64,000 nt of DNA, taken from positions 17,980,001 to 18,044,000 of the forward strand of contig OY740787.1 of NCBI GenBank assembly GCA_963514005.1, written 5' to 3'. The position numbers and the translations under genes were made by a program. The notes beneath the pieces were generated by a model. The model saw nothing but the letters and a program-made list of their open reading frames with translations. It searched no databases and was not told where the DNA came from. The DNA is from Raja brachyura (lineage: Eukaryota). Positions 11,391-40,439 of the stretch are shown piece after piece; positions within the stretch are counted from its first letter, which is position 1; every line of letters begins with the position of its first letter.

Positions 11391-13990
11391 TAGAAACATA
11401 GAAACATAGAAACATAGAAACATAGAAATTAGGTGCAGGAATAGGCCATTTGGCCCTTCGAGCCTGCACTGCCATTCAATATGATCATGGCCTGATCATC
11501 CAACTCAGTATCCCGTACCTGCCTTCTCTCCATACCCTCTAATCCCCTTAGCCACAAGGGCCACATCTAACTCCCTCTTAAATATATCCAATGAACTGGC
11601 CTCAACTACTCCCTGTGGCAGAGAGTTCCAGAGACCCACCACTCTCTGTGTGAAAAAATTCCTTCTCATCTCGGTCCTAAAGGATTTCCCCCTTATCCTT
11701 AAGCTGTGACCCCTTGTCCTGGACCTCCCCAACATCGGGAACAATCTTCCTGCATCTAGCCTGTCCAACCCCTTAAGAATCTTGTAAGTTTCTATAAGAT
11801 CCCCTCTCAATCTCCTAAATTCTAGAGAGTATAAACCGAGTCTATGCAGTCTTTGTTCATAAGACAGTCCTGACATCCCAGGAATCAGTCTGGTGAACCT
11901 TCGCTGCACTCCCTCTATGGCAATAATGTCCTTCCTCAGATTTGGAGACCAGAACTGTACGCAATACTCCAGGTGTGGCCTCACCAAGACCCTATACAAC
12001 TGAAGTAGAACCTCCCTGCTCCTATACTCAAATCCTTTTGCTATGAAAGCTAACATACCATTGGCTTTCTTCACTGCCTGCTGTACCTGCATGCCTACTT
12101 TCAATGACTGGTGTACCATGACACCCAGGTCGCACTGCATCTCCCCTTTTCCTAATCGGCCACCATTTAGATAGTAGTCGGTTTTCCTATTTTTGCCACC
12201 AAAGTGGATAACCTCACATTTATCCACATTATACTGCATCTGCCAAACATTTGCCCACTCACCCAGCCTATCCAAGTCACCTTGCATTCTCCTAGCATCC
12301 TCCTCACAGCTAACACTGCCACCCAGCTTAGTGTCATCCGCAAACTTGGAGATATTGCCTTCAATTCCCTCATCCAGATCATTTATGTATATTGTAAATA
12401 GCTGGGGTCCCAGCACTGAGCCTTGCGGTACCCCACTAGTCACTGCCTGCCATTGTGAAAACGACCCGTTAACTCCCACTCTTTGCTTCCTGTTTGCCAG
12501 CCAGTTCTCTATCCACATCAATACTGAACCCCCAATGCCATATGCTTTAAGTTTATATACTAATCGCTTATGTGGGACCTTGTCGAAAGCCTTCTGGAAG
12601 TCCAGATACAGCACATCCACTGGTTCTCCCCCATCCACGCTACTAGTTACATCCTCGAAAAATTCCACAAGATTCGTCAGACATGATTTACCTTTCGTAA
12701 ATCCATGCTGACTTTGTCCAATGATTTCACCACTTTCCAAATGTGCTGCTATCCCATCTTTAATAACTGACTCTAGCAGTTTCCCCACTACCGATGTTAG
12801 ACTAACTTGTCTGTAATTCCCCGTTTTCTCTCTCCCCCCCTTCTTAAAAAGAGGGGTTACGTTTGCTACCCGCCAATCCTCAGGAACTACTCCAGAATCT
12901 AAAGAGTTTTGAAAGATTATCACTAGTGCATCCACTATTTCCGGAGCTACTTCCTTAAATACTCTGGGATGCAGCCTATCTGGCCCTGGGGATTTATCGG
13001 CCTTTAATCCATTCAATTTACCCAACACCACTTCCCGACTGACCTGGATTTCACTCAAGTACGCCTTTGACCTGCAGTCCCCTGCTATTTCCGGCAGATT
13101 ATTTATGTCTTCCTTAGTGAAGACGGAACGAAAGTAGTTATTCAATTGGTCCGCCATATCCTTGTTCCCCATGATCAACTCACCTGTTTCTGACTGCAAG
13201 GGACCTACATTTGTTTTAACTAATCTCTTTCTCTTCACATATCTATAAAAACTTTTGCAGTCAGTTTTTATGTTCTCTGCCAGTTTTCTTTCATAATCTA
13301 TTTTTCCTTTCCTAATCAAGCCCTTTGTCCTTCTCTGCTGGTCTCTGAATTTCTCCCAGTCCTCTGGTATGCTGCTTTTTTCTGGCTACTTTGTACGCAT
13401 CATCCTTTGCTTTGATACTATCCCTGATTTCCCTTGTTATCCACGGATGCACTACCTTCCCTGATCTATTCTTTTGCCAAATTGGGATGAACAATTTTGT
13501 AGTTCATCCATGCAGTCTTTAAATGTCTTCCATTGCGTATCCACCGTCAACCCTTTTAGAATTGATTGCCAGTCAATCTTGGCCAATTCACGTCTCATAC
13601 CCTCAAAGTTACCTTTCCTTAAGTTCAGAACCATTGTTTCTGAATTAACAATGTCACTCTCCATCCTAATGAAGAACTCGACCATATTATGGTCACTCTT
13701 GCCCAAGGGGGCACGCACAATAAGACTGCTAACTAACCCTTCCTCATTACTCAATACCCAGTCTAAAATAGCCTGCTCTCTCGTTGGTTCCTCTAGAACC
13801 AACGAGAGAGCAGGCTATTGATTTGTTGATTTAGATAACTATCCCTCATACTTTCCAAAAAATCCTCTTCCTCAGTGCCCCTGCCAATTTGATTCACCCA
13901 ATCTATATGTAGATTGAAGTCACCCATTATAACTGTTTTGCCTTTGTCGCACGCATTTCTAATTTCCTGTTTTATACCATCCCCAACTTC
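11391..13990 (-). mobile_element. Young 5'-truncated CR1 LINE (2.6 kb)
   Basis: (ATGTTTCT)n tail at 11391-11425; C-terminal part of the APE endonuclease (ILDWVL, LGKSDH) plus RT; short atca duplication at the ends. Confidence 0.95.
11505..13319 (-). CDS. CR1 ORF2 reverse transcriptase segment (604 aa open; upstream frameshifts, so likely non-functional)
   Basis: Motifs KSPGPD, QHGFTKGKSCLTNL, YLDFQKAFDKV, GVPQGSVLGP, FADD, RPHLEYCVQFW. Confidence 0.9.
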   Translation of the reverse strand: MIRKGKIDYERKLAENIKTDCKSFYRYVKRKRLVKTNVGPLQSETGELIMGNKDMADQLNNYFRSVFTKEDINNLPEIAGDCRSKAYLSEIQVSREVVLGKLNGLKADKSPGPDRLHPRVFKEVAPEIVDALVIIFQNSLDSGVVPEDWRVANVTPLFKKGGREKTGNYRQVSLTSVVGKLLESVIKDGIAAHLESGEIIGQSQHGFTKGKSCLTNLVEFFEDVTSSVDGGEPVDVLYLDFQKAFDKVPHKRLVYKLKAYGIGGSVLMWIENWLANRKQRVGVNGSFSQWQAVTSGVPQGSVLGPQLFTIYINDLDEGIEGNISKFADDTKLGGSVSCEEDARRMQGDLDRLGEWANVWQMQYNVDKCEVIHFGGKNRKTDYYLNGGRLGKGEMQCDLGVMVHQSLKVGMQVQQAVKKANGMLAFIAKGFEYRSREVLLQLYRVLVRPHLEYCVQFWSPNLRKDIIAIEGVQRRFTRLIPGMSGLSYEQRLHRLGLYSLEFRRLRGDLIETYKILKGLDRLDAGRLFPMLGRSRTRGHSLRIRGKSFRTEMRRNFFTQRVVGLWNSLPQGVVEASSLDIFKRELDVALVAKGIRGYGEKAGTGY

Positions 13991-24795: not shown

Positions 24796-25225
24796 AACCA
24801 TACAGACAGCACCACCTTCAAAAACAGTAATTGTATGTTTGAAACCAATCTATTTTTGAGTCCAGGGTTTATTATTCTATCTTTCTTTTGTGATTTCCAG
24901 GAGTATCTTTGTTTATCCTCATCAGATATCTATGGCAGGGCACAAGGCCAGGTTATGAAAATCAAAAACAGATGCTAGAAATCTGAATTCCAAGTGAAAA
25001 AGTTAAATTACTCTGCAAGTTGGTCATCATTTGTGGATAGAAAACGAAAAATGTTACAAATGCAGCGGGACCTGATGATTATTTCCACCCGGTTCTATTT
25101 TACTTTGGGTTTCTAGATTTCCTCTGGGTGCTCCGGTTTCCCCTCACACTCCAAAGCCGTACAGGTTTGTAGGTTAATTAGCTTTGGTAAAATTGTAAAC
25201 TGTCCTTGGTGTGTAGGATAGTACT

Positions 25226-25401
25226 TCTTCTTCTTATCGAGTCCACACTCAATATTAGAAGTTGTTCAGCCAGAAACTGAACACATTTCTCGGCATCTGC
25301 ATACAATGGTGTCTGTCTTGCGCTTCTTGGGCTTCTTGTGCGTGATGATGGAAAGATTAGTGAAAACAGGGCTGCAACGTGAACGCTCTTTCCTTGACCC
25401 C
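25226..25401 (-). mobile_element. 176-bp non-autonomous retroposon (probably Ingi/Vingi-derived) with (GAA)n tail
   Basis: 11-bp TSD aggatagtact at 25215-25225 and 25402-25412; 3' end ...TGGACTCGATAAGAAGAAG. Confidence 0.8.
25350..25401 (-). ncRNA. Minimal HDV-like self-cleaving ribozyme (predicted)
   Basis: GGGGTC-AA-GGAAAGA-GCG-TTCACGT-TGC-AGCCCT-G-TTTTCA-CTAA-TCTTTCC parses as P1/P2/P3/L3/P3'/P1'/P1.1/linker/J4-2/P2'. Confidence 0.75.
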
Positions 25402-26499
25402 AGGATAGTACTAACGTACAGGGTGATCGCTGGTCGGCGTGGACTCGGAGGTCCAAAGGTATTGTTTCCATGCTGCATCCCTGTAGTCTGAATTAAATAT
25501 CGTCGTAAATCTTTTCTGCACTCTTACCAGCTTAATGACAACCTTCCTGTAGCAGAGTGAACAAAACTGAACATAATACTCCAAATACGGCCTCACCATC
25601 CCAAAGGAACGTTCACAGTATTTTCATCCTATTTTAACACAGAGGAAAAATGCCTCCATAAAATCAATGCGTTGTTATTTTATTATTGATGCATATTTTG
25701 AATATAAATTAGAGCAATGTACAAGTAATCAGCTTTCCACCCAGGAGATGTTATTACTGATGGGTATTAATGTTCCAGGTGCCTGCCATTGATCGTCACT
25801 ATATTTATTTTTCCCACACAATTTCTTTTTGTCTTGGCTTCTTCTAGCATGTGTTCATCATTGTGAAATTAGAAAAATATTTTTGCCTCATTTTATCACC
25901 CCCCCCCCACAATAAAATTGACATTATACATTTATGTATGTTGCTGGAGCAATTTACAGTTTGGCAAAGTTTGCTAATTCATTTGAAAATATTTTATGAC
26001 TACGCGCTTGCACAGAAAGGAGTAAAAATTAATTATGACCCATTTACAGACAGAGGAAGCTTGCCCCAGACGCAAGGCCCAAGGCCTGTCAAAACTTGAG
26101 CCAGAGGATTTTATTTTAATATTTTGCACCTGTTGCCTCTCCAGAGACAGCTCAAACTATGTTGATGTCCAATTTTGGGAGAGGTTGGGAAGAGTCAGCT
26201 TAACAGTGTTGTTCGAGAGTGCCACGCCATTAGGGAGGCAAGAGAAACCAGACTTGCTCACCCTCACTGGTTAGAAACAACTTGAAAATAAACCTACTTT
26301 TGCAGGTAGAAATCCTGAGAGGGCACAAAGCAGTCACTTAGTAATTAAGTACAGTATGTCTGAAGTAGGCTGTGATACCTCATTTAATGGTAGCACAATT
26401 AGACCTTTTACTGATCAGACATTATGCAATTTGCTCTCCTTGAGCCAATTTTATGTCCAAATTTTACATTGATATAATTGGTCCTACTGAGCCAATTTT

Positions 26500-35043: not shown

Positions 35044-35183
35044 CTCTTCTTCTTGCGTACGGCGTGCACAGCCTAAAGTTGTAGGACAACTTGGTCTATT
35101 TGATCTTATTTGATTGTGCATGCCGGGTTGATTGAATTCATCGAAACAGGGTGGACCACGTGAAGGTTGCAATCTTCCACCCC
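35044..35183 (-). mobile_element. 140-bp non-autonomous retroposon with (GAA)n tail
   Basis: 10-bp TSD tttc(c/t)attca at 35034-35043 and 35184-35193. Confidence 0.8.
35130..35183 (-). ncRNA. Minimal HDV-like ribozyme (predicted; this copy probably inactivated)
   Basis: GGGGTGG-AA-GATTGCA-ACC-TTCACGT-GGT-CCACCCT-G-TTTCGA-TGAA-TTCAATC; full P1 and P3, P2 6/7, catalytic C position is T. Confidence 0.75.
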
Positions 35184-38718: not shown

Positions 38719-40439
38719 GACACCGCAAGTTGGAGGAACAGCACCTCATATTCCGCTTGGGGAGTCTGCATCCTCTGGGCTTAAGCATTGATTTTTTTCA
38801 ATTCTGTTAACCCTTGCTGTCTCCTCCCCTTCCCACCTCTTCCTCAGCCCTCAGGCCATGGCATTCCCTCTCTCTCTATCTCTCCCCCACCCAAGTCGCA
38901 CTAGCTTCTCATTTTCACACTACAAACAGTTTACAATGGCCTGTTTCCTTTATCATCGTTACTTTTTTGCATATCTTTCATTCATTGTTCTTTATCGATC
39001 CACATCATCGTCTATATCTCTCATTTCCCTGATCCCGAACCAGTCTGTAGAAGGGTCTCAACCCGAAACGTCGCCTATCTCCTTCGCTCCTTAGATGCTG
39101 TGCGGCGCAGCTGGCAGACGTCTGGACTGATATCTTCAACCTGTCACTTGCCCAGGCAGTTGTCCCCATGTGCCTTAAAACCACCTCCATCGTGCCAGTG
39201 CTAAAACACTCCACTGCGGCAAGCCTCAACGACTTCCGCCCAGTTGCACTTAGCCCCATCATCACCAAGTGCTTCGAGAGGCTGGTCCTGGCACACCTCA
39301 AAAGCTGCCTACCCCCCACACTGGATCCCTATCAGTTTGCCTACCGCAAGAACAGGAGTACGGAGGATGCCATCTCAACGGCACTTCACTCCGCCCTCTC
39401 CCACCTCGACAACAGAGACACTTACGTAAGAATGCTGTTCATCGATTACAGCTCAGCATTCAACACCATTATACCATCAAAATTGATCGCCAAACTCGGT
39501 AATCTGTGCATCGCTCCTTCCCTCTGCAACTGGATACTGGACTTTCTAACCAACAGACCCCAGTCTGTTAGGTTAGACAAGCACACCTCTTCAATCCTCA
39601 CCCTGAACACCGGCGTTCCACAGGGCTGTGTGCTGAGCCCCCTCCTCTACTCCCTCTTCACCTATGACTGCACACCTGTACATGGTACTAACACCATCAT
39701 CAAGTATGCAGATGATACAACGGTGATTGGCCTCATCAGCAACAACGGAGGTGGAACGTGTTTCTAGCTTCAGGTTCCTGGGAGTCAACCTCTCCGACGA
39801 CCTCTCTTGGACCCACAATACCTCAACTCTGATCAAGAAGGCTCACCAGCGTCTCTTCTTCCTGAGGAGACTGAAGAAGGTCCATCTGTCTCCTCAGATC
39901 CTGGTGAACTTCTACCGCTGCACCATCGAGAGCATCCTTACCAACTGCATCACAGTTTGGTATGGCAACTGCTCTGTCTCCGACCGGAAGGCATTGCAGA
40001 GGGTGGTGAAAATTGCCCAACGCATCACCGGTTCCCCGCTCCCCTCCATTGAGTCTGTCCAAAGCAAGCGTTGTCTGCGGAGGGCGCTCAGCATCGCCAA
40101 GGACCTCTCTCACCCCAACCATGGACTGTTTACCCTCCTACCATCCGGGAGGCGCTACAGGTCTCTCCGTTGCCGAACCAGCAGGTCCAGGAACAGCTTC
40201 TTTCCGGCGGCTGTCACGCTACTCAACAACGTACCTCGGTGACTGCCAATCACCCCCCCCCCAGACACTTATTGTTATTTATTCAAATCATTTGCTGTGT
40301 CGCTCTTCCAGGGAGATGCTAAATGCATTTCGTTGTCTCTGTACTGTATACTGACAATGACAATTAAAATTGAATCTGAATCTGAATCTGAATCTGAATG
40401 CTGCTGCACCCACTGAGTTTCTCCAGCTTTTTGTGTACC
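38719..40439 (+). mobile_element. Penelope-like 3' fragment (GIY-YIG end plus pseudo-LTR) with a 14-bp TSD
   Basis: RKLEEQHLIFRLGSLHPLGLSID; TSD ttcacttttaatgc at 38705-38718 and 40440-40453. Confidence 0.8.
39101..40397 (+). mobile_element. Young Rex1/Babar LINE, 5'-truncated
   Basis: [51 protein letters not shown]; (tctgaa)n tail; TSD atgctg at 39095-39100 and 40398-40403. Confidence 0.92.

Follow-up and report, generated by a model that had tools for sequence, protein, structure and literature searches.

Long interspersed nuclear elements (LINEs) of several clades carry self-cleaving ribozymes of the hepatitis delta virus (HDV) type. Kojima 2018 lists R1, R2, R4, RTE, Ingi as well as LOA as ribozyme-bearing clades, and Vingi does not appear in that list. 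Vingi elements have a single open reading frame (ORF) with an APE endonuclease and a reverse transcriptase (RT), and no RNase H (PMC13708176). Among non-autonomous elements, NARTc and the R2 SIDEs keep active HDV-like ribozymes at their 5' ends (PMC6765202, PMC4035085), and the R2 SIDEs are described as ribozyme-headed non-autonomous elements (PMC6765202, PMC3414825). HDV-like ribozymes that lack helix P4 are found nearly 99% in tailed phages (Kienbeck 2024, PMC10879173), and the same study reports no matches in its added eukaryotic genomes, that is human, mouse and protists. Here we analyse a 176-bp retroposon in a 64,000-nt stretch of Raja brachyura DNA (assembly GCA_963514005.1, contig OY740787.1, positions 17,980,001 to 18,044,000; hereafter the window). 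We consider it quite probable that this element is a bipartite derivative of a Vingi-type LINE, with a predicted P4-less HDV-like ribozyme at its head and a 3' end that a LINE protein would recognise.

Architecture of the 176-bp element and its predicted head

The initial annotation described a retroposon that starts with a minimal HDV-like fold, and we recover the same element, with an 11-bp target-site duplication (TSD) and every helix in the same place. The parts of the locus, in window positions, are as follows.

25226..25401, minus strand: whole non-autonomous retroposon, likely Vingi-type, a decayed copy of 176 bp (from genomic matches with unrelated flanks)
25350..25401, minus strand: predicted P4-less HDV-like fold, 52 nt, with the predicted cut 5' of G1 (25401)
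25401-25396 with 25373-25368, minus strand: P1 strands
25393-25387 with 25356-25350, minus strand: P2 strands
25386-25384 with 25376-25374, minus strand: P3 strands
25383-25377, minus strand: L3
C 25381 with G 25367, minus strand: P1.1 pair
25357..25360, minus strand: J4/2, with 25360 the predicted catalytic cytosine (from alignment to the Rfam CPEB3 model)
25307..25349, minus strand: middle part, likely a remnant of the parent's 5' untranslated region (UTR) plus the deletion junction
25255..25306, minus strand: putative leftover of a Vingi-like ORF, comprising its final ~16 codons and stop (from a peptide match through copy L019)
25226..25254, minus strand: short 3' UTR and (GAA)n tail; the GGACTCG before the tail is also found in autonomous family D
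25402..25412, minus strand: upstream TSD copy, 11 bp
25215..25225, minus strand: downstream TSD copy, 11 bp
25116..25482, plus strand: older dispersed repeat, the insertion host, in opposite orientation to the element and present over 10 further times in the window

In the window copy, P1 has 6 bp, with G1.U34, a wobble at U5.G30 and a mismatch at C6xA29. J1/2 is 2 nt, P2 is Watson-Crick in 7 of 7 pairs, P3 has 3 bp including one G.U, L3 is 7 nt and P1.1 is the lone pair C21-G35. At the site of P4 stand G35 and 6 further nucleotides, making 7 nt from P1 to J4/2, which begins with C42 (25360). By alignment to the Rfam CPEB3 model, C42 is the equivalent of HDV C75 and CPEB3 C57, and a C holds this position in 54 of the 55 aligned copies of the 176-bp family. 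As modelled, the head thus has the defining features of an HDV-like ribozyme (a nested double pseudoknot of P1, P1.1, P2 and P3 with covarying pairs, a G1 pair at the predicted cut site, the L3 consensus, and a C-N-R-A J4/2 with C first) and of the minimal form in particular, where a short loop replaces P4. A fold descriptor matched the window once, at 25401, and gave no match in 100 dinucleotide-shuffled windows (12.8 Mb), although it was composed after the heads had been seen and is hence tuned to them. The Rfam CPEB3 model (RF00622) scores the window copy at 24 bits (E 0.0014) and intact copies at 26.9-28.1 bits, all below the gathering cut-off of 35. Pseudoknot-free folding gave other structures and did not recover the predicted fold (z +1.08), a result that is uninformative on the pseudoknot.

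Two changes in the window copy, C26T and G29A, are CpG decay at the junction of P1 and P3; the family state is C26 in 36 and G29 in 38 of 53 aligned letters. The C-A mismatch in P1, which the initial annotation found explicable by CpG decay, corresponds to G29A. The G.U in P3 is CpG decay as well, so the window copy has been damaged twice at this junction. It also has a 1-nt insertion in the ORF remnant relative to 29 other aligned copies, and nothing indicates that this copy is itself functional.

The element lies within the older repeat, which tentatively resembles the body of a chondrichthyan V-SINE. All six uninterrupted copies of this repeat shown within the window hold a single equivalent of the 11-mer, and therefore the 11-bp repeat is a true TSD. 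With its TSDs and short repeat tail, no ORF and no RNA polymerase III (Pol III) head, the element has the general form of a bipartite LINE derivative. We find no A or B box on its sense strand with up to 1 mismatch allowed, as the initial annotation had noted, no tRNA gene in the 64-kb window, and no host-gene domain among the 33 frames scanned of the 47 long frames in the window. A short interspersed nuclear element (SINE) derived from tRNA, 5S or 7SL RNA was rejected, as there is neither a small-RNA-derived head nor an A or B box. Elsewhere in the window, RT frames of other LINEs occur at 11505-13385 (minus strand) and 39051-40242 (plus strand), both Pfam RVT_1, with PF09004 at 39727-40242.

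Relatives, copies and origin of the family

Support for the fold also comes from autonomous elements of the same genome. A Pfam endonuclease search of the 2.7-Gb assembly gave mostly Nimb/I-like and CR1-like elements, but also one Vingi-like element (L093), and from it we obtained at least 8 families (among them A to H) of single-ORF endonuclease and RT elements without RNase H. Pfam found endonuclease and RT in 10 ORF pieces and RNase H in none; among 120 listed homologues no RNase H domain is annotated by Pfam, and one source name mentions ribonuclease H. Relatives in the databases belong to teleosts, lancelet, sea urchin, crustaceans, insects and Anolis, the last with a 939-aa endonuclease and RT protein. 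We call these families Vingi-like on the basis of architecture, host range and motifs, their relatives in the endonuclease tree all being unnamed. In a side observation, the protein of family D (L153, L155, L159) is 85-88% identical to elements of two teleosts (P0002, P0010), which suggests horizontal transfer. Another abundant LINE family with two ORFs and long open frames (L061-L090) was also seen; its features suggest that it is Nimb/I-like.

Of the eight autonomous families, an HDV-like fold is predicted at the 5' boundary in seven (A, B, C, D, E, F and H), the copies of family G that were read being 5'-truncated. Across the 8 head types, each represented by one natural copy, strands pair with their own partners in 46/48 positions of P1, 47/48 of P2 and 24/24 of P3. 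When strands are swapped between families, pairing falls to 203/336 (60%), 164/336 (49%) and 132/168 (79%), respectively. The P1 and P2 sequences have little in common among these head types; J4/2 is C-N-R-A, with C at the catalytic position, in 8/8, and in family B a U-A pair replaces the C-G of P1.1. Between the two lineages with P4-less heads, both partners differ in 5 of the 7 pairs of P2 and in 1 scored pair of P3, and 97.6% of 248 cells pair, as against 33-51% in slid controls. This comparison represents two lineages only and not 16 events, with only 5 P1 pairs scored and one P3 pair out of register for the 176-bp family. Autonomous family C has a P4-less head with the same 7-nt linker as the 176-bp element, and hence the P4-less head was not invented by the short element. 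Family H resembles the 176-bp element in its 6-bp P1; a P1 of 6 or 7 bp is normal for HDV-like ribozymes (PMC4908430).

A sister element, SINE-C (139 bp), matches both ends of autonomous family C with its first 72 and last 40 nt, and a 19-mer from it occurs exactly 11,159 times in the genome (control 0). One copy lies in the window.

35045..35183, minus strand: SINE-C copy, 86% identical to L147, flanked by a duplication of its own and with a predicted P4-less HDV-like head

At the catalytic position this copy reads T. We also observed a SINE-C copy inside its own parent family (L147:702-840), and copies of SINE-C and of the 176-bp family head to head, a few bases apart (L112:1515-1712).

The 176-bp family itself is large. 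A DNA search of the genome gave 1,891 candidates, of which the best 40 were scored, each showing 90-100% identity along almost the whole element. Its copy number, a point raised by the initial annotation, can be gauged from a head 15-mer with 1,454 exact occurrences genome-wide and none for the reversed control; this count together with the measured decay rates makes several thousand copies likely. Among the 30 best copies, 24 have a flanking direct repeat that ends no more than 3 nt from G1, and in 12 it ends at G1 exactly. As those copies had been selected for full length, a second sample was selected by the 3' 80 nt (query excluded). Here G1-G3 is reached by 26 of 29 copies, the other 3 being truncated or ambiguous, and no upstream sequence is common to any of the 29, so the expected start of copies at G1 is borne out. 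The base preceding G1 is T in ~19 of 30 copies (L001-L030), which may reflect a preference for certain target sites or the addition of a non-templated base. A second subfamily occurs among L183-L212 (for example L186, L189, L193 and L201); its head is unchanged, its middle part is shorter by 4 nt, and its 3' half differs by three diagnostic changes.

Non-CpG change amounts to 3.8% at paired positions of the head, 4.1% in L3, P1.1 and J4/2, and 4.1% in the body, while CpG positions of the head have changed at 19.6%. Head and body decay alike, and we therefore reject post-insertion selection acting on the catalytic or the paired positions. The copies decay neutrally once inserted, and most are probably inactive. 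The catalytic C that had been called intact is indeed present as C42, but with no sign of selection, and given the equal decay of head and body its presence in the window copy is uninformative on that point.

The 3' half of the element reads as the end of an ORF followed by a short UTR and (GAA)n. The peptide of copy L019 matches the C-terminus of database protein P0090 in 8 of 9 core residues with a score of 46, which none of 200 shuffles attained (the mean over 120 proteins was attained by 3 of the 200), and also matches the C-termini of P0102 and P0030. In the endonuclease tree, P0090 clusters with families D, E, G and H (support 85/93, not starred). By sequence comparison, the 3' part thus matches the 3' end of a Vingi-like LINE, the parent being homologous and not identical. 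The middle part differs in length among copies, and the first bases past P2 are common to the 176-bp element, family H and two metagenome loci described below (L271 and L281). Based on these matches, we propose that the element is likely an internally deleted, bipartite Vingi-type LINE. The earlier label of a ribozyme-headed SINE-like element therefore needs revision: a repeated, TSD-flanked, non-Pol III element with a covarying fold it is, but of the bipartite Vingi type rather than a stand-alone kind of SINE.

Proposed mechanism and rival explanations

In the mechanism that we favour, internal deletion of a Vingi-type LINE would have kept the 5' head and the 3' end, and a source copy would be transcribed by read-through from an upstream host promoter. 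The RNA would then self-cleave 5' of G1, C42 acting as general acid; a Vingi protein would bind the 3' end of the freed RNA of ~175 nt in trans, and insertion would follow by target-primed reverse transcription. Cleavage at G1 followed by reverse transcription would explain why full-length copies start at G1 with no shared upstream sequence.

Several observations weigh against this proposal. P1 and P3 of the window copy are predicted at -4.9 kcal/mol, compared with -9.5 in an intact copy. Copies had been expected to keep the pairings; between families the pairing pattern does covary, but the complete in-register fold is kept in only 5 of the 29 3'-selected copies. RNA reads cross G1 into mixed flanks with no pile-up of starts; they come from three runs of other organisms, with 5-6% of each run read and 267, 1,101 and 677 reads at 82% likeness or more. 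That pattern is equally expected from fragmented libraries and from decayed or antisense copies in host transcripts, and a strand excess in one run, which may come from few loci, is not used as evidence. Some SIDER heads with adequate predicted folds failed to cleave (PMC4035085). A direct parent was found neither by two exclusion-pattern searches of the genome, from the 3' and the 5' side (in the first, 100 of 120 matches were listed and 30 loci read; in the second, 23 of 23 were read), nor among the loci fetched from three endonuclease searches (started from families A, D and H). Family D dominated a C-terminal search, where the best 150 of 2,388 candidates were scored, and a pattern allowing a longer linker, of 7-30 nt past the core motif, gave only 2 matches, both the short element. 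Three matches seemed to share new upstream sequence; the one that was read (L208) proved to be the short element split by another insertion. As no direct parent was found, we assign the 5' half to Vingi through analogy; the parent could be scarce or diverged, or a cross-mobilising relative could have taken its place.

An internal RNA polymerase II (Pol II) promoter in the head could likewise give precise 5' ends, since such starts suit either route, and cleavage would then be secondary or dispensable. There is precedent in the first 77 nt of L1Tc (Pr77), at once promoter and ribozyme and also present in NARTc (PMC3383444), and Kojima 2018 considers bipartite LINEs to be probably Pol II transcribed from their 5' regions. 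A DNA promoter would not, however, need the pairing and the catalytic C that are kept in 8 head types with little likeness in P1 and P2, and the position of the start is that of G1 in P1, where ribozymes of this class cleave (PMC4908430). We regard it as improbable that such a promoter sets the 5' end. Nor do we give much credence to a real fold whose P4-less form cuts poorly or never and is kept as a protective or Vingi-protein-binding 5' module. Such a role would have parallels in the cap-like protection attributed to the R2 fold in a review (PMC13708176) and in the R2 protein, which binds the 5' region independently of cleavage (PMC6765202), and poor cutting would suit the other head structures from pseudoknot-free folding and a P1.1 of only one pair plus a U.U. 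Yet the catalytic C and the C-N-R-A J4/2 occur in all 8 head types, natural P4-less ribozymes cleave in vitro (PMC10879173), and CPEB3 is active with a P1.1 that likewise has one pair plus a U.U (PMC9901934).

An ordinary Pol III SINE, or a fold that resembles HDV by chance, would account for a short, multicopy, TSD-flanked element whose window copy falls below the Rfam cut-off. We regard this reading as refuted and hold hardly any probability for it: the element has no A or B box or tRNA, shuffled windows give no descriptor match, its 3' end appears Vingi-derived with SINE-C as a bipartite sister, and compensatory changes run across families, with the same fold heading autonomous ones. A theta ribozyme, of phage origin and cutting beside a tRNA 3' end, was also rejected, given a window without tRNA and the context of a vertebrate retroposon. 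A ribozyme-headed Vingi derivative thus remains the reading that we prefer.

CPEB3-like heads and comparison with known systems

The head also resembles the mammalian CPEB3 ribozyme. In the family H head (L220), which scores 28.1 bits on the CPEB3 model, P2 is identical to that of CPEB3 and P4 equal in length. We scanned metagenome contigs with a 20-letter motif common to the 176-bp family, family H and the CPEB3 consensus and read 80 of at least 120 loci; the pattern fixes ~20 positions and leaves P2, J1/2 and the end of P1 free. Most matches read are chance occurrences in GC-rich DNA, and 13 have HDV-like folds. Five of these loci (L281, L293, L312, L271 and L279), representing two distinct insertions, have the head ~190 nt upstream of a Vingi-like ORF.

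L281:754-837 and L271:2623-2706, metagenome contigs: CPEB3-like Vingi heads
L298, L299, L326, L268, L284, L292, L294 and L296: microbial-looking HDV-like folds, of which L298, L299 and L326 are P4-less

The four Vingi heads that were scanned (L271, L281, L293 and L312) score 55.6-63.2 bits on the CPEB3 model, above the cut-off of 35. Outside P4, the heads of L281/L293/L312 and of L271/L279 have ~3 differences from the Rfam CPEB3 consensus, and P1, P3 and L3 of the 176-bp family are near-identical to the CPEB3-like Vingi head. We tentatively suggest, and on balance would not presume, that Vingi is an unlisted ribozyme-headed LINE clade, that one of its branches was the source of the mammalian CPEB3 ribozyme and that this same branch repeatedly shed P4. 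If so, CPEB3 would be an exapted Vingi 5' end, and loss of P4 would have produced minimal ribozymes by the thousand in a vertebrate genome. Against such descent stand the eight microbial-looking loci, whose P3 and L3 core is the same and is shared with family H, and most of which have a P1 of 6 bp together with a similar P2, so the CPEB3-like sequence may be a strong optimum that was reached or spread more than once; for a Vingi origin of the CPEB3 ribozyme as such, we lean modestly towards doubt. No tRNA adjoins these eight folds. In passing, L326 has a twister-P1-like and L299 a RAGATH-36-like match, both below cut-off.

Our literature search, whose scope was papers and did not extend to Repbase, Dfam or patents, so that a prior description is possible, returned no Vingi ribozyme, no eukaryotic P4-less HDV-like ribozyme and no Vingi origin of CPEB3. 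Within that scope, we found nothing in print on predicted ribozymes that head Vingi-like elements, on heads without P4 in vertebrate copies numbering thousands, or on a near copy of the CPEB3 ribozyme carried by a Vingi-like element. Ruminski 2011, Webb 2009, Webb and Luptak 2011 and Riccitelli 2014 reportedly describe HDV-like ribozymes from sea urchin and lancelet; because Vingi-like proteins occur in both, some of these examples may be Vingi heads under another name.

A ribozyme-headed bipartite LINE derivative is in itself a known kind. Like the 176-bp element, the bipartite non-autonomous elements of the Vingi, Ingi, RTE and R2 clades (derivatives of Vingi-1_EE, RIME, NARTc and R2 SIDEs) are short and ORF-less; they join the 5' and 3' ends of a LINE (PMC5786205), as the 176-bp element likely does, and they share with it the lack of a Pol III head and the presence of TSDs (PMC5786205, PMC4035085, PMC6765202). 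It differs from them in a head without P4, a vertebrate host and a parent that was not found. With the minimal HDV-like and theta ribozymes the head shares the absence of P4, a size of ~50 nt, the C first in J4/2 and G1 at the cut site (PMC10879173), but in contrast to the phage forms it heads retroposons, with more than 12,000 exact-motif copies in two families, and does not lie beside tRNA genes. Compared with the model of the mammalian CPEB3 ribozyme (RF00622, PMC8233481), P3, L3, most of P1 and the single-pair P1.1 are letter-for-letter the same in intact copies, and the C-A mismatch of the window copy, located at P1's inner end, falls, as placed by alignment, at the site of the mammalian CPEB3 G30A variant. 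It departs from CPEB3 in its 6-bp P1, another P2 sequence, the lack of P4 and a score under the cut-off; moreover, CPEB3 is single-copy and conserved, whereas copies of the 176-bp family decay neutrally.
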